From: a virus
Lineage: Duplodnaviria > Heunggongvirae > Uroviricota > Caudoviricetes
IMG/VR virus record: IMGVR_UViG_2547132255_000004
DNA: 44,605 nucleotides
Direction: 5' to 3' (one strand)
Part shown: one piece after another, positions 3,921-44,024 of the stretch
Layout: every line of letters starts with the position of its first letter
Position numbering within the stretch: position 1 is the first letter of the stretch
Translations under genes and position numbers: made by a program
The notes under the pieces: generated by a model
The model's input: the letters and a program-made list of their open reading frames with translations, nothing else
Database searches by the model: none
Told to the model about the DNA's origin: nothing

Positions 3921-6661
<2,741 letters not shown>

Positions 6662-16255: not shown

Positions 16256-16654
16256 TTGTGGAGTAAGTTGATGCGTGATATTCAGATGGTTCTTGAGCGT
16301 TGGGGAGCGTGGGCGGCTAATAATCATGAAGATGTGACCTGGTCGTCCGTTGCCGCCGGTTTTAAGGGATTAATTCCTTCAAAAGTAAAATCTCGCCCGC
16401 AATGTTGTGACGATGACGCGATGATCATTTGCGGGTGCATGGCCCGTCTGAAAAAGAACAACAGCGATTTACACGATTTATTAGTAGATTATTATGTATG
16501 TGGTATGACATTCATGTCACTGGCAAGTAAGCATTGCTGCTCGGATGGTTATATCGGGAAAAGGTTACAGAAGGCTGAGGGCATAATTGAAGGGATGTTA
16601 ATGGCATTAGATATCCGGTTAGATATGGATATCGTTGCTAATAATTCTAATTGA
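16256..16654 (+). CDS. Q: Late-gene antiterminator Q (phage 82/DLP12 QuuD-type)
   Basis: Protein ...[24 protein letters not shown]...[17 protein letters not shown]... resembles the 82-type Q family; the ORF-track start is a TTG, the probable real start is the ATG at about 16271. Confidence 0.85.
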
Positions 16655-16686
16655 TATGCAATTGTTTACTAAAAGTTATTAAAAAT

Positions 16687-16704
16687 GGGGCGTGGAAACG
16701 CCCC
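16687..16704 (-). terminator. Hairpin with downstream U-run on the minus strand (possible terminator for the nmpC transcript)
   Basis: GGGGCG-tggaaa-CGCCCC; on the minus strand it is followed by ATTTTT. Confidence 0.35.
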
Positions 16705-16791
16705 CAAAATAAAGGGTAATATATAACAGAAGGTTTATATAGTAAGAAGCAAGGTAGTGCTTCTAAAGGAAGTGGCTTGAGGGCTCCACTT

Positions 16792-16831
16792 ATATGTTGC
16801 GGAGGCAAAGCCTCCCGCAACATATCTTTTT
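16792..16831 (+). terminator. Rho-independent terminator on the plus strand, about 140-180 nt downstream of Q (candidate tR'-like late terminator)
   Basis: Long near-perfect stem ATATGTTGCGGAGGC-aaa-GCCTCCCGCAACATAT followed by CTTTTT. Confidence 0.55.
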
Positions 16832-16842
16832 CGTAAGTCAGA

Positions 16843-17925
16843 TTAGAACTGATAAACCAGACCTACAGCGACGATGTCGTCGGTATCAATACCAGCTGTT
16901 TTGGTAAACTTACTATCGTCAATTAAGTTGATTTTGTAATCAACAAAAGTGGACATGTTTTTATTAAAGTAGTAAGTAGCACCGACATCGACATACTTGA
17001 CTAAGTCTCGGTCACCATGAACACCAAGGTCTTTACCTTTTGACTGAAGGTAAGCAACAGATGGTCGCAGACCGAAGTCAAACTGATATTGTGCTACTGC
17101 TTCAAAGTTTTGTGCTTTGTTTGCAATATGGTTATTACCAAAAACGGTCATATTCTGAGTTTCAGAATATGTGGTAGCCAGATAGATATTGTTCGCATCA
17201 TATTTCAGGCCTGCAGCCCATACTTCCGCATTTTTGCCGGAGGCATTGAATTTGCTCTTACCATAGGCGACCTGACCGTCAGTGCGATCTGATTTAGCAT
17301 AGGTTGCACCCACGCCGAATCCTTCATACTCATAAGTAGTGGAGAAACCGAAACCATCACCATTGGCTTCAGTTACGTCAGTGCGGTCATTTTTACCCTG
17401 ATACTGAGCAGCAAAGTTCAGGCCATCGACCAGACCAAAGAAGTCGTTGTTACGATAAGTTGCAACACCAGTAGTGCGACCAGTCATGAACACATCTGTT
17501 TGGGTCCAGGTATCACCACCGAATTCTGGCAGGACGTCAGTCCACGCACCGATGTCGTATGCTACACCGTAGTTACGGCCGTAATCGATTGAGCCGTAAT
17601 CACCAAATTTCAGGCCTGCAAATGCAAGACGGGTTTTGTCTTTGGAAGAACCTTGAGATTCAGCACGGTTGCCTTTGAATTCATATTCCCACTGACCGAA
17701 ACCAGTCAGTTGATCGTTGATTTGGGTTTCACCTTTGAAGCCAAGACGGGCATAAGTAGTATCACCATCATCTGCATCATTAGAGGAGAAGTAGTGCTTG
17801 GCATTAACTTTCCCGTATAGATCCAGCTTGTTACTGTCTTTATTATAAATTTCAGCTGCCTGAGCAGACATCGCCATCAGTACTGATGCAGCTACAGCAG
17901 AAATTGCCACTGTTAATTTTTTCAT
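16843..17925 (-). CDS. nmpC: Outer-membrane general porin, OmpC/OmpF family (NmpC/Lc-type prophage porin)
   Basis: 360-aa protein with signal peptide ([23 protein letters not shown]), porin motifs and C-terminal ...VAVGLVYQF; located between Q and the holin as nmpC is in DLP12. Confidence 0.92.
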
Positions 17926-37817: not shown

Positions 37818-40800
37818 ATGGGTAAAGGCAGCAGTAAGGGGCATACCCCGCGCGAAGCGAAGGACAACCTGAAATCATCCCAGATGCTGAGCGTGATAGA
37901 CGCCATCAGTGAAGGGCCGATTGAAGGTCCGGTGGACGGATTAAAAAGTGTGCTGCTGAACAGTACGCCAGTGCTGGACAGTGAGGGGAATACCAATATC
38001 TCCGGTGTCACGGTGGTTTTCCGGGCAGGTGAGCAGGAGCAGACACCGCCGGAGGGATTTGAATCCTCCGGCTCCGAGACGGTGCTGGGTACGGAAGTGA
38101 AGTACGACACGCCGATTACCCGGACCATCACGTCTGCAAACATCGACCGTCTGCGCTTTACCTTCGGTGTGCAGGCACTGGTGGAAACCACCTCAAAGGG
38201 GGACCGGAATCCGTCGGAAGTCCGCCTGCTGGTTCAGATACAGCGTAACGGTGGCTGGGTGACGGAAAAAGACATCACCATTAAAGGCAAAACCACCTCA
38301 CAGTATCTGGCCTCGGTGGTGGTGGGTAACCTGCCGCCGCGCCCGTTCAATATCCGGATGCGCAGGATGACGCCGGACAGCACCACAGACCAGCTGCAGA
38401 ACAAAACGCTCTGGTCGTCATACACCGAAATCATCGATGTGAAACAGTGCTACCCGAACACGGCACTGGTCGGCGTACAGGTGGATTCGGAGCAGTTCGG
38501 CAGCCAGCAGGTGAGCCGTAATTATCATCTGCGCGGGCGTATTCTGCAGGTGCCGTCGAACTATAACCCGCAGACGCGGCAATACAGCGGTATCTGGGAC
38601 GGAACGTTTAAGCCAGCATACAGCAATAACATGGCCTGGTGTCTGTGGGATATGCTGACCCATCCACGCTACGGCATGGGGAAACGTCTTGGTGCGGCGG
38701 ATGTGGACAAATGGGCGCTGTATGTCATCGGCCAGTACTGCGACCAGTCAGTGCCGGACGGCTTTGGCGGCACGGAGCCGCGCATCACCTGTAATGCGTA
38801 CCTGACCACACAGCGCAAGGCGTGGGATGTGCTCAGTGATTTCTGCTCGGCGATGCGCTGTATGCCGGTATGGAACGGGCAGACGCTGACGTTCGTGCAG
38901 GACCGACCGTCGGATAAGGTGTGGACCTATAACCGCAGTAATGTGGTGATGCCGGATGATGGCGCGCCGTTCCGCTACAGTTTCAGCGCCCTGAAAGACC
39001 GCCATAATGCCGTTGAGGTGAACTGGATTGACCCGAACAACGGCTGGGAGACGGCGACAGAGCTTGTGGAGGATACGCAGGCCATTGCCCGTTACGGTCG
39101 TAACGTCACGAAGATGGATGCTTTTGGCTGTACCAGCCGGGGGCAGGCACACCGCGCCGGGCTGTGGCTGATTAAAACAGAACTGCTGGAAACGCAGACC
39201 GTGGACTTCTGCGTGGGCGCAGAAGGGCTTCGCCATGTGCCGGGCGATGTCATTGAAATCTGTGATGATGACTATGCCGGTATCAGCATCGGCGGGCGCG
39301 TGCTGGCGGTAAACAGCCAGACCCGGACGCTGACGCTCGACCGTGAAATCACGCTGCCATCCTCCGGTACCACGCTGATAAGCCTGGTTGACGGAAGTGG
39401 CAATCCGATCAGCGTGGAGGTTCAGTCCGTCACCGACGGCGTGAAGGTGAAAGTGAGCCGTGTTCCTGACGGTGTTGCTGAATACAGCGTGTGGGGGCTG
39501 AAGCTGCCGACGCTGCGCCAGCGCCTGTTCCGCTGCGTGAGTATCCGTGAGAACGACGACGGCACGTATGCCATCACCGCCGTGCAGCATGTACCGGAAA
39601 AAGAGGCCATCGTGGATAACGGGGCGTACTTTGACGGCGACCAGAGCGGCACGGTGAATGGTGTCACGCCGCCAGCGGTGCAGCACCTGACCGCCGAAGT
39701 CACCGCAGACAGCGGGGAATATCAGGTGCTGGCGCGCTGGGACACGCCGAAGGTGGTGAAGGGCGTGAGCTTCCTGCTCCGTCTGACCGTAACAGCGGAT
39801 GACGGCAGTGAGCGGCTGGTCAGCACGGCCCGGACGACGGAAACCACATACCGCTTCAGGCAACTGGCGCTGGGGAACTACAGGCTGACAGTCCGGGCGG
39901 TAAATGCGTGGGGGCAGCAGGGCGATCCGGCGTCGGTATCGTTCCGGATTGCCGCACCGGCAGCACCGTCGAGGATTGAGCTGACGCCGGGCTATTTTCA
40001 GATAACCGCCACGCCGCATCTTGCCGTTTATGACCCGACGGTACAGTTTGAGTTCTGGTTCTCGGAAAAGCGGATTACCGATATCAGGCAGGTTGAAACC
40101 ACAGCCCGCTATCTTGGTACGGCGCTGTACTGGATAGCCGCCAGTATCAATATCAAACCGGGCCATGATTATTACTTTTATATCCGCAGTGTGAACACCG
40201 TTGGCAAATCGGCATTCGTGGAGGCCGTCGGTCGGGCGAGCGATGATGCGGAAGGTTACCTGGATTTTTTCAAAGGCAAGATAACCGAATCCCATCTCGG
40301 CAAGGAGCTGCTGGAAAAAGTCGAGCTGACGGAGGATAACGCCAGCAGACTGGAGGAGTTTTCGAAAGAGTGGAAGGACGCCAACGATAAGTGGAATGCC
40401 ATGTGGGGCGTCAAAATTGAGCAGACCAAAGACGGCAAACATTATGTCGCGGGTATTGGCCTCAGCATGGAGGACACGGAGGAAGGCAAACTGAGTCAGT
40501 TTCTGGTTGCCGCTAACCGTATCGCATTTATTGACCCGGCAAACGGGAATGAAACGCCGATGTTTGTGGCGCAGGGCAATCAGATATTCATGAACGACGT
40601 GTTCCTGAAGCGCCTGACGGCCCCCACCATTACCAGTGGTGGCAGTCCTCCGGTATTTTCCCTGACATCAGACGGAAAGCTGACCGCTAAAAATGCGGAT
40701 ATCAGTGGCAGTGTGAATGCGAACGCCGGGACGCTCAACAATGTCACGGTAAATGAAAACTGTACGATTAAGGGCATGCTGGAGGCGACTCAGGTCAGAG

Positions 40801-41231
40801 GTGACTTCGTTAAAGCTGTATCCAAATCATTTCCGAAACAGGCTGGTACGTGGGGTAACACGGAAACACCAAACGGGACGGTTACAGTCACCATCAGCGA
40901 TGATCATAACTTTGACCGTCAAATCATTATTCCGCCCATTATCTTTAACGGAATAGCGTATAGCGATCCGGGAAGTGGTAATAACCCGGGAGGTACAAGA
41001 TACACGGGTTATGGTTTTGAAGTTCGCAAAAACGGTGTATTAATCGCATCCAGAGAAACTAAAGGGGCCATTCCCGGTAGCTACAGTGCGGTTATTGATA
41101 TGCCGAGTGGCAGGGGAAGCGTCACTCTGGAGTTTAAGGTTTTCCATAAAGGCAATCAGTGGGCAGGTAATATCACCGACTGTACGGTGATTGTGACCAA
41201 AAAAGCCGCTTCCGGCATCAGTATTCGTTGA
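37818..41231 (+). CDS. J: Central tail fibre / host-specificity protein J; C-terminal receptor-binding region differs from lambda
   Basis: 1137-aa protein; N-terminal roughly 1000 residues are lambda J-like, but the last roughly 130-150 residues (...[54 protein letters not shown]...[14 protein letters not shown]) do not match the lambda LamB-binding C-terminus as I recall it. Confidence 0.9.
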
Positions 41232-41252
41232 AATTGTTATAACCCATATAAG

Positions 41253-41277
41253 GGCACCAGAAATGGTGCCTTTTTTA
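41253..41277 (+). terminator. Rho-independent terminator downstream of J
   Basis: GGCACC-agaaat-GGTGCC followed by TTTTTTATT. Confidence 0.6.
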
Positions 41278-41300
41278 TTGCAGAAAAGCGAGAGGTAATT

Positions 41301-41900
41301 ATGCGTAAACTTTATGCCGCCATTTTGTCCGCAGCCATTTGTCTGGCCGTATCCGGTGCGCCTGCATGGGCATCTGAACATCAGTCCACGCTGAGCGCGG
41401 GGTATCTTCATGCCTCGACGAACGTTCCCGGCAGCGATGATCTTAACGGGATTAACGTGAAATACCGTTATGAGTTTACGGACACACTGGGGCTGGTGAC
41501 GTCATTCAGCTATGCAGGAGACAAGAATCGCCAGCTTACCCGTTACAGCGATACCCGCTGGCATGAAGATTCCGTGCGTAACCGCTGGTTCAGCGTGATG
41601 GTGGGGCCGTCTGTGCGCGTGAATGAATGGTTCAGCGCGTATGCGATGGCGGGTATGGCTTACAGCCGTGTGTCGACTTTCTCCGGGGATTATCTCCGCG
41701 TAACTGACAACAAGGGGAAAACGCACGACGTGCTGACCGGAAGTGATGACGGTCGCCACAGCAACACGTCTCTGGCGTGGGGAGCTGGCGTGCAGTTTAA
41801 CCCGACCGAATCCGTGGCCATTGATATTGCTTATGAAGGCTCCGGCAGTGGCGACTGGCGCACTGACGGTTTCATCGTGGGTGTCGGTTATAAGTTCTGA
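41301..41900 (+). CDS. lom: Lom-like outer membrane protein (Ail/Lom/PagC family)
   Basis: 199-aa protein with signal peptide and C-terminal ...[15 protein letters not shown] beta-barrel end typical of the family; lambda lom position after J. Confidence 0.85.
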
Positions 41901-41958: not shown

Positions 41959-44024
41959 GTGAATATGGCAGTAAAGATTTCAGGTGTACTGAAAGACGGC
42001 ACAGGAAAACCGGTACAGAACTGCACAATCCAGCTGAAAGCAAAACGTAACAGCACCACAGTTGTGGTGAACACGGTGGCCTCAGAAAATCCGGATGAAG
42101 CCGGACGTTACAGCATGGATGTTGAGTATGGCCAGTACAGCGTCGCCCTGCTGGTTGAAGGTTTTCCGCCTTCACATGCCGGGACCATCACCGTGTATGA
42201 GGATTCTAAGCCGGGGACATTGAATGATTTTCTGGGCGCTGCAACAGAAGATGATGTTTGTCCGGAGGCACTGTATCGTTTTGAAAAGATGGTGGAAGAG
42301 GCGGCACGCAACGCTGAAGCCGCCTCTCAGAGCGCAGCGGCAGCAAAGAAATCAGAAACAGCAGCGGCATCGTCCAGGAACGCGGCGAAAACATCAGAGA
42401 CGAATGCAGGTAACAGCGCGAAAGCGGCAGCTTCTTCAAAAACAGCCGCACAAAACGCAGCAACAGCGGCAGAACGTTCAGAGACAAATGCCCGTGCGTC
42501 AGAAGAAGCCTCCGCAGACAGTGAAGAGGCTTCCCGCCGTAATGCAGAGTCAGCCGCTGAAAATGCCGGAGTCGCCACCACAAAAGCGCGGGAGGCCGCA
42601 GCAGACGCAACAAAGGCCGGGCAGAAAAAGGATGAGGCTCTGTCGGCAGCGACACGAGCTGAAAAGGCGGCAGACCGCGCAGAAGCCGCAGCGGAAGTGA
42701 CTGCAGAGCCCTGTGCGAATATAGTGCCGCCGCTGCCTGATGTGTGGATACCGTTTAACGATTCACTGGATATGATTGCGGGTTTTTCTCCGGGCTATAA
42801 AAAAATAGCTATTGGTGACGATGTGGTTCAGGTCGCCAGTGATAAACAGGTTAATTTCAGTCGCGCATCAACGGCAACATATATCAACAAATCTGGCGAA
42901 CTGAAAACGGCGGAAATTAATGAGCCGCGATTTGAGTGTGATGGCCTGCTTATTGAGGGACAAAGAACGAACTACATGCTCAATTCGGAAAGTCCAGCCA
43001 GCTGGGGGAAGTCATCAAACATGGATGTGCCCGAAACCGGGACGGATAGTTTTGGTTTTACTTATGGAAAGTTTGTCTGCAACGATTCTCTGGTTGGGCA
43101 AACTTCGGCTATTAATATGGCATCAATTGCTGCAACAAAGTCAGTTGATGTCTCAGGCGATAACAAGTACGTGACAACCTCATGCCGTTTTAAAACAGAA
43201 CGACAGGTAAGGTTACGTATACGGTTTGATAAGTATGATGGTAGTGCAACAACTTTTCTTGGCGATGCGTACATTGATACGCAAACGCTTGAAATTAGTA
43301 TGACAGGTGGTGCTGCCGGCAGAATTACGGCACGAGTCAGGAAGGATAAGACCACGGGCTGGATTTTTGCAGAGGCAACGATTCAGGCAATTGATGGTGA
43401 GTTAAAAATAGGCTCTCAGATACAGTATTCTCCTGGGCAGGGTGGGGCAACAGTATCTGGTGACTATATTTATCTTGCCACCCCACAAGTAGAGAATGGG
43501 CCGTGTGTATCATCATTTATTATTTCAGGAGGCAGCGCAACGACAAGAGCCAGTGATTTGGTTAGTATCCCCACCAGAAATAATCTTTATAAGTTACCAT
43601 TTACTTTTTACTTGAGATTCATAAAAACTGGGATATTGCACCAAACGCCGCACCCCGCGTGTGGGATATAGCAGCAGCCAATACCGGGCAATCAGCAATT
43701 GCAGCAATCAACAGAGGTAGTGGTAAGTTATATATGAGTCTGTCAAACCCTTCAGGCTCGTATGTTAATAGCGCAGCGACAGATGTATTTGCAGAGAAAA
43801 CCACATTTGGATGTATTGCAAAAGCTGATGGTCACTTTCATGTGGTGACAAATGGTAAAGCGGTTAATGAAGTTTATTGTGAATATAATGGCGTGACCGC
43901 TGATAAAAATATCCGATTTGGAGGGCAGACGAATACTGGAGAACGACATCTGTTTGGCCATATTCGCAATTTCCGCATATGGCATAAAGAATTAAATGAC
44001 AGGCAATTAAAAGAGGTCGTATGA
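41959..44024 (+). pseudogene. stf: Side tail fibre gene stf, split into 570-aa and 121-aa ORFs by a frameshift at an A5 run (about 43623-43627)
   Basis: N-terminus MAVKISGVLKDGTGKPVQNCTIQLKAKRNSTTVVVNTV... plus Ala/Ser-rich repeat region matches the lambda Stf N-terminal part; protein-like translation continues in the +1 frame (NWDIAPNAAPRVWDIAAANTG...NFRIWHKELNDRQLKEVV) right after the A-run. Confidence 0.65.

Follow-up and report, generated by a model that had tools for sequence, protein, structure and literature searches.

The tips of the tail protein J (gpJ) of lambdoid phages have been described in several systems. In lambda, the "specificity region" of J (residues 960-1132) recombines as a module of its own (Maddamsetti et al. 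2018, PMC6646904). The same work reported indel and specificity hot spots at residues 1012, 1048-49, 1077-78 and 1107, of which 1012 and 1107 were critical in the switch to OmpF, and showed that single changes in the variable segments of lambda can alter receptor use (PMC6646904). The lambda tip binds LamB, and the open state of lambda gpJ was reported to clash with the loops of OmpC (PMC11101478). The receptor of phage 434 is outer membrane protein Ib, i.e., OmpC, according to Hantke 1978 as that work is cited in PMC7414163, and a lambda phage equipped with the tail-fibre gene of 434 binds OmpC in place of LamB (PMC3509688, PMC11101478). Finally, A8 is a natural prophage tip that was grafted on lambda J by Eligo Bioscience, thereby retargeting it to OmpC, and A8 and 1A2 gpJ differ in the OmpC variants that they can use (PMC11338833).

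Here, we analyzed the J gene of a 44,605-nucleotide viral sequence (IMG/VR record IMGVR_UViG_2547132255_000004), the whole of which is called the window below. An initial annotation had proposed that the J protein is lambda-like over most of its length, that its C terminus diverges completely from that of lambda, and that this reflects a swap of the receptor-binding domain and hence a receptor other than LamB.

Layout of J and limits of the non-lambda block

The J protein is identical to RefSeq WP_000515311.1, the J of prophages Perceval (strain LF82) and NC-SV (strain NC101). Its Pfam domains follow the lambda order (FNIII-A_GpJ, Phage-tail_3, Ig_J, Ig_J_second, Phage_Tail_Tip and Ig_GpJ_C), and the gene is followed by a hairpin, lom and the side-tail-fibre gene. 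The features are the following (positions in the window).

37818..41231, + strand: gene J, tail-tip attachment and host-specificity protein, intact open reading frame of 1137 aa
37818..40697, + strand: lambda-like J body (residues 1-960) with hub domains, two FNIII/Ig domains, helical shaft and central straight fibre; 97.7% amino acid identity to lambda J
40698..40768, + strand: conserved junction (residues 961-984); 83% amino acid identity to lambda
40770..41228, + strand: receptor-binding domain of the h434 type (residues 985-1137), an Ig-like beta-sandwich whose loops vary; 95.4% identity to phage 434 and 37.3% to lambda
40769..41823, + strand: whole non-lambda block of 1,055 bp from the two-breakpoint scan, spanning the tip of J, the spacer between J and lom, and the first ~174 codons of lom
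41250..41273, + strand: terminator-like hairpin followed by a T run, directly 3' of the J stop codon
41301..41900, + strand: lom, Ail/Lom outer membrane beta-barrel of 199 aa (PF06316, E=1e-119), 434-type allele lying mostly within the non-lambda block

The records of phages 434 and mEp460 have an annotated terminator at the position equivalent to the hairpin. The Lom protein shares 45% amino acid identity with lambda Lom, and the lom gene is ~100% identical to 434 lom at the nucleotide level.

Compared to lambda J (NC_001416) by BLASTP, the full-length protein showed 89% identity, which was very unevenly spread. As the initial annotation had stated, most of the protein is lambda-like, with 97.7% identity over residues 1-960, followed by 83% over residues 961-984 and 37.3% over residues 985-1137. 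The same drop was seen in the nucleotide sequence, where identity to lambda per 90-nt window was 92-100% until about position 40780 and 39-61% from there on. When the nucleotide alignment with lambda was scanned for two breakpoints by likelihood, the left one came to lie at 40769 (support 40764-40782) and the right one at 41823 (support 41820-41826), inside lom. Mismatch to lambda was 51% within this block versus 6.5% outside of it, a gain of 170 log-likelihood units over a single rate. The final block in common with lambda is GAAAACTGTACGAT, the last base of which is 40768. The start proposed initially (40750) was therefore about 20 nt off and essentially right, as was the proposed size of 130 to 150 residues, the actual figure being 153. 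The non-lambda block does not stop at the J stop codon (41231), where the stretch given initially ended; it extends across the spacer and into lom, as far as 41823.

Origin and identity of the tip allele

Divergence from lambda at synonymous sites (dS, Nei-Gojobori) was 0.13 for codons 1-800, 0.11 for codons 801-960 and 0.21 for codons 961-984, and reached a saturated value of 2.26 for codons 985-1137. In addition, GC content at third codon positions dropped from 70.3% in the J body to 46.8% in the tip, compared to 62.4% in that of lambda. Furthermore, phages Ayreon and ev243 carry the same tip (100% and 95.4% identity over residues 985-1137, respectively) behind another shaft module, whose identity over residues 801-960 is just 62.5% and which has 28 additional residues. 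Given the jump in dS at the breakpoint and the presence of the same tip on the other shaft of Ayreon, we consider the tip a recombined module and not the product of local fast evolution, as the initial annotation had proposed. The results point to an old, separately evolved allele that was acquired by recombination.

Diversifying selection is known to act on receptor-binding tips (PMC6646904), which would speak for in-place divergence from a lambda-type ancestor under rapid positive selection, with no swap at all. Nevertheless, such a history would have to account for a ~17-fold synonymous jump at a sharp boundary, a divergent block that goes beyond J, crossing the non-coding spacer into part of lom, a shift in base composition within the tip, and an identical tip behind the different shaft module of Ayreon. 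Moreover, dN/dS between tip types is just ~0.26, and within the h434 type it is 0.08-0.17, indicating that selection on the h434-type tip is purifying overall. We thus rejected in-place divergence, which we regard as extremely improbable.

The junction segment (residues 961-984) hardly varies among 25 tip sequences, which represent at least eight types. It is also retained in the engineered gpJ chimeras 1A2 (supplement) and A8 (PDB alignment), whose sequences differ 3' of it. The segment is common to all tip types, and the recombination junctions are located at its 3' end. All of this is in line with the specificity region of Maddamsetti et al. 2018, in that the history of the tip differs from that of the rest of J and indels fall at the four reported hot spots. 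There is no difference in kind between the two, although the block exchanged here also includes lom. We considered an obligatory linkage of tip and lom and rejected it, as phage Tritos has the tip without lom.

Among described phages, the block matches that of phage 434. J as a whole was 96.3% identical to 434 J (OL657226, UMO75286.1) in nucleotides and 98% in amino acids, with equal length, and within the tip (residues 985-1137) 146 of the 153 residues were identical, with no indels. The non-lambda block was 83-100% identical to 434 per 30-nt window, and both the window and phage 434 share their junctions with lambda, departing from it at ~40769 and rejoining it at ~41823. Clustering of tips by single linkage at 75% identity likewise grouped the tip with the h434-type proteins. 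The seven differences from the 434 tip (S1004A, Q1008K, A1009V, N1019D, S1049D, R1099G and W1115R) lie mostly within variable segments. Position 1115, which aligns 3 residues away from lambda D1107, shows three states (W, R and G) in eight h434-type alleles.

The record of the laboratory hybrid "Lambda h434 imm21" (OM418627) relates this allele to the classical marker. Its J has no mismatch to lambda over nucleotides 1-2100 and from there until the stop 0-2 mismatches per 300 nt to 434. Since J of OM418627 is identical to 434 after nucleotide ~2100, the classical h434 marker lies within a 434-derived stretch that begins in the last third of J. This record alone cannot assign the host range to the tip, because the hybrid also carries lom, stf and tfa of 434. 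Taken with the alignments above, the J tip is the C-terminal receptor-binding domain of gpJ in its classical h434 allelic form. Aligning J with lambdoid relatives, as the initial annotation had suggested, hence gave both the breakpoint (40769) and the type of the donor (classical h434). Phage 434 and the locus studied here are alike in tip length, in the left junction relative to lambda and in the 434-type lom downstream. They differ in the seven tip residues, and the receptor was tested in 434, whereas for this allele we infer it.

Closer still are Perceval and NC-SV. The J nucleotides are identical to those of NC101 and one synonymous base apart from those of Perceval (OV696612) and LF82. 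The J protein is the same in all of them, and what sets this copy apart lies outside J, namely, an IS100 in bet and a run of T5 instead of T6 in stf.

Fold and probable receptor of the tip

The initial description of the C terminus as completely diverged was overstated. It is indeed of a non-lambda type; nevertheless, it still aligns with lambda from end to end. Residues 1001-1136 matched the Ig_GpJ_C family (PF12421) over profile positions 1-134 of 135, with 90.9 bits versus a cut-off of 26.2 (E=9.4e-26). Since PF09327 covers residues 845-972, this domain stands at the extreme C terminus of the 1137 residues, after the tail-tip fibre domain. In sequence searches of the PDB, A8 gpJ was the best match of the tip (E=7.5e-43) and lambda gpJ was found with E ~1e-33. 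An AlphaFold2 model of residues 961-1137, of the kind that the initial annotation had proposed as a check, was all-beta with a mean pLDDT of 80; it is a monomer built from 23 aligned sequences, from which the receptor-facing loops are not readable. Its top Foldseek matches in the PDB were the solved gpJ tips 9wcb, 8xck, 8xcj and 9wca (E 2-4e-15, TM 0.67-0.68), the next match having E=1e-4. Of these, 9wcb is A8 gpJ713 in the open state with OmpC, and 8xck and 8xcj are the lambda gpJ tip, closed and LamB-bound. The tip thus belongs to the gpJ family of Ig-like beta-sandwich folds.

Across the 25 sequences of at least eight tip types, 22 scaffold positions were invariant, among them C982, G995-D996, F1005-P1006, D1028-D1029, R1034-Q1035 and P1096. 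Variation and indels were concentrated in residues 1007-1019, 1044-1063, 1078-1088 and 1107-1120 of the J studied here. We related these variable segments to receptor binding by way of the indel hot spots of PMC6646904, as the text of PMC11101478 gives no residue numbers for the lambda loops L1-L4. Relative to lambda, indels were found at lambda residues 1011/1012 (+2), 1043-1049 (+6), 1078 (+1), 1099 (+2) and 1109-1114 (-6). The four main ones coincide with the hot spots of PMC6646904, and all five are at or beside positions that govern the choice of receptor in lambda (PMC6646904).

When compared to the lambda gpJ-LamB system (PDB 8XCJ, 8XCK; PMC11101478), the tip is therefore alike in Pfam family, Ig-like fold, position at the end of a trimeric fibre and conserved scaffold residues. 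A LamB-binding tip of the lambda type would be recognized by close identity and by the loop lengths of lambda; here, the identity was 37.3%, and there were five loop indels. The A8 and 1A2 chimeras (PMC11338833; PDB 9WCA, 9WCB) are similar in another way, as they carry natural E. coli prophage tips that depart from lambda after the same linker; they are, however, separate sequence types with different loop lengths. Indeed, tip residues 985-1137 were ~45% identical to the A8-type cluster and ~44% to 1A2-like tips (about 50-51% over a 177-residue alignment). We hence rejected an assignment to the A8 or 1A2 type, the tip being below the 75% identity criterion and in a separate cluster.

Because the tip is 95% identical to the 434 allele, it can be assigned to OmpC: the tip of this allele probably binds OmpC rather than LamB. 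The receptor other than LamB that had been predicted initially is in this way supported by homology, namely, by the 95.4% identity to the OmpC-type tip of phage 434. Altogether, we consider it very likely that J residues 985-1137 are an h434 allele recombined onto a lambda-like body, forming the domain at the end of the fibre, with OmpC as the most probable porin. This assignment names the porin and not particular OmpC variants, between which gpJ variants can discriminate (PMC11338833).

Homologous recombination at the conserved linker DISG...NENCTI joined the h434 allele to the lambda-like body. For the action of the tip, the following sequence of events can be proposed by analogy with the lambda gpJ-LamB and A8 gpJ-OmpC complexes. 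Three Ig-like copies of the tip would cap the trimeric central fibre, and their distal loops would enter the extracellular mouth of a trimeric porin, most probably OmpC. Binding would spread the three tip domains apart, and this change would travel up the fibre. As in the lambda model (PMC11101478), the central fibre would then twist and the helical shaft flip, so that the tail tip would open and DNA ejection would be triggered. From the conserved scaffold, we infer that the signal would be transduced as in lambda.

The seven residues that differ from 434 leave room for a different reading of the receptor, in which this h434-family tip would use another or an additional porin (OmpF, LamB or an Lc/NmpC-type porin) or just some OmpC variants. 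Most of these 7 changes among 153 residues are in variable segments, the three-state position 1115 aligns 3 residues from lambda D1107, a residue critical in the OmpF switch (PMC6646904), and A8 and 1A2 do discriminate between OmpC alleles (PMC11338833). Still, there are no indels relative to 434, the within-type dN/dS of 0.08-0.17 is purifying, K-12 supports growth of phages with an identical tip, as it does of 434 (PMC9928086; Ayreon record), and the nearest solved relative, A8, also binds OmpC. This reading is thus unlikely, and OmpC is the preferred assignment. A literature search for receptor data on PhiR29/49 and mEp460, which carry the same tip, gave nothing usable.

Perceval, which has the identical J protein, forms plaques on E. 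coli K-12 DH10B (PMC9928086), and the recorded host of Ayreon, with its identical tip, is E. coli K12. From the growth of these two phages on K-12, the J allele is functional. One could nevertheless view the tip as a functionless relic in a decaying prophage, as this copy has the IS100 in bet and the frameshift in stf. Both bet and the side fibres are, however, dispensable. For bet, this is the case in the lytic growth of lambda. As to the side fibres, lambda PaPa is devoid of them owing to a frameshift in stf (PMC12617516). J itself is an intact open reading frame encoding the same protein as the plaque-forming Perceval (PMC9928086), and we therefore rejected the relic, which is very improbable.

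Distribution and prophage context

The tip allele is widely distributed. A megablast search with its DNA (window positions 40770-41231) gave matches in 2111 of the 5426 complete E. coli genomes, with at least 99% identity in 722 records. By tblastn, 74 phage records had a tip at least 90% identical, including 434, mEp460, 2B8, Evi, Tritos and many Stx1a/Stx2c phages, and 169 more phage records had tips of other types, with less than 60% identity. The feature is thus real and ordinary, and it is already known both in kind and in its exact form. The allele, the modular exchange and the abundance are all documented, and nothing new follows from them beyond their value for annotation. This value lies in the assignment of a probable receptor, OmpC and not LamB, to a family of prophages that includes Perceval (LF82) and NC-SV (NC101), LF82 and NC101 being studied strains of adherent-invasive E. 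coli.

The window is an NC-SV-type prophage at icd, 100% and 99.97% identical to NC101 in the sequences flanking the IS100, a 1,953-bp element inserted in bet of this copy. In stf, there is a one-base frameshift relative to Perceval and LF82 (T5 instead of T6). Compared to LF82, the right 30 kb of the window were 99.5% identical, and the left arm was mosaic.

NC-SV is reported to repress lamB via the small RNA svsR (PMC12803456). If OmpC is the receptor, LamB is not needed by the prophage, so that repression of lamB would not block phages of its own kind. If the receptor of NC-SV is OmpC, repression of lamB would thus spare its own kind and exclude competitors.

The window also contains an Lc/NmpC-type porin gene (16843-17925) that is 90.7% identical to Lc of phage PA-2. 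We presume a link of this prophage porin to PA-2 (Lc/OmpC). A literature search on PA-2 and Lc-OmpC gave nothing usable, and an Rfam scan of the whole window for an annotated small RNA near the prophage porin gave no match. One can imagine that the loop residues differing from 434 (e.g., W1115, Q1008/A1009 and S1049) retune the tip and that, together with the Lc-like porin, they make up a receptor-swap self-exclusion system, a scheme that we regard as quite unlikely. The targets of such retuning might be certain OmpC variants, found in E. coli strains that are adherent-invasive or of phylogroup B2, or else prophage Lc/NmpC-type porins, and entry might occur via OmpC, which the prophage would then replace or repress. 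We rejected the idea that the Lc-like porin and the h434 tip always occur together, as 2G7b, 4A7, D2, Turner and PhiR63_2 pair the porin with other tip types.

Extent and composition of the non-lambda block

The lambda-divergent stretch extends past the end of J to cover positions 41232-41823 as well, that is, the J-lom spacer and approximately 174 of the 199 lom codons. The window Lom is 45% identical to its lambda counterpart, and the lom gene of phage 434 is ~100% identical to that of the window at the nucleotide level. Phage Tritos has the same type of J tip as the window but lacks lom. Within the tip itself (40770-41231), third-position GC was 46.8%, compared to 70.3% elsewhere in J and 62.4% for the tip of lambda J. 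Because of this drop in third-position GC, we suggest that the tip was donated by a lineage with a different base composition.

Both ev243 and Ayreon harbor a second mosaic module inside J (residues ~801-990), in which the helical shaft/central fibre is 62.5% identical to that of the window and 28 residues longer; this differing shaft module is followed by an h434-type tip as in the window. In the classical laboratory hybrid Lambda h434 imm21 (OM418627), the crossover lies inside J at nt ~2100, the sequence being identical to lambda on the 5' side and to 434 on the 3' side, on through lom, stf and tfa.

An NC-SV-type prophage

The window is an NC-SV-type lambdoid prophage with icd as its integration site. 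On the two sides of IS100, its identity to the E. coli NC101 sequence amounts to 100% and 99.97%. Perceval of E. coli LF82 shows 99.5% identity to the right 30 kb of the window; the left arm of the window is mosaic. For NC-SV, a small RNA, svsR, has been reported to lie at the 3' end of cI and to repress lamB (PMC12803456). The recombination gene bet of the window is interrupted by an insertion sequence, and IS100 was found at this bet site neither in NC101 nor in the remaining close matches:

4399-6351, IS100 (IS21 family), 1,953 bp
5243-6265, minus strand, istA, within IS100
4464-5246, minus strand, istB, within IS100

The prophage porin gene

A porin gene has the Q-like antiterminator on one side and the lysis genes on the other:

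16843-17925, minus strand, porin gene
16613-16842, region downstream of the porin gene, ~230 nt

Its product is 90.7% identical in amino acids to Lc of phage PA-2, and the PA-2 sequence J02580 matches the window with 88.6% nucleotide identity over 2 kb, including the porin promoter and downstream hairpins. The receptor of PA-2 is OmpC, and Lc lysogens lose OmpC. The region downstream of Lc encodes the sRNA IpeX; an Rfam scan of the whole window, including the region by the porin gene, gave 0 matches. If these properties of PA-2, Lc and IpeX hold, the prophage porin would fit with a J protein that binds OmpC. The Lc-like porin gene is not confined to the h434 tip and was also found alongside other J tip types.

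Frameshift in stf

The side-tail-fibre gene stf is frameshifted at positions 43605-43609, where the window has a run of five T residues and Perceval and LF82 have six:

41959-43671, stf open reading frame
43659-44024, open reading frame 3' of the stf frame

The run of five could be a homopolymer sequencing error. Insertion of one T restored a 688-aa Stf. A stf frameshift is likewise present in laboratory lambda, which the window resembles in this respect.
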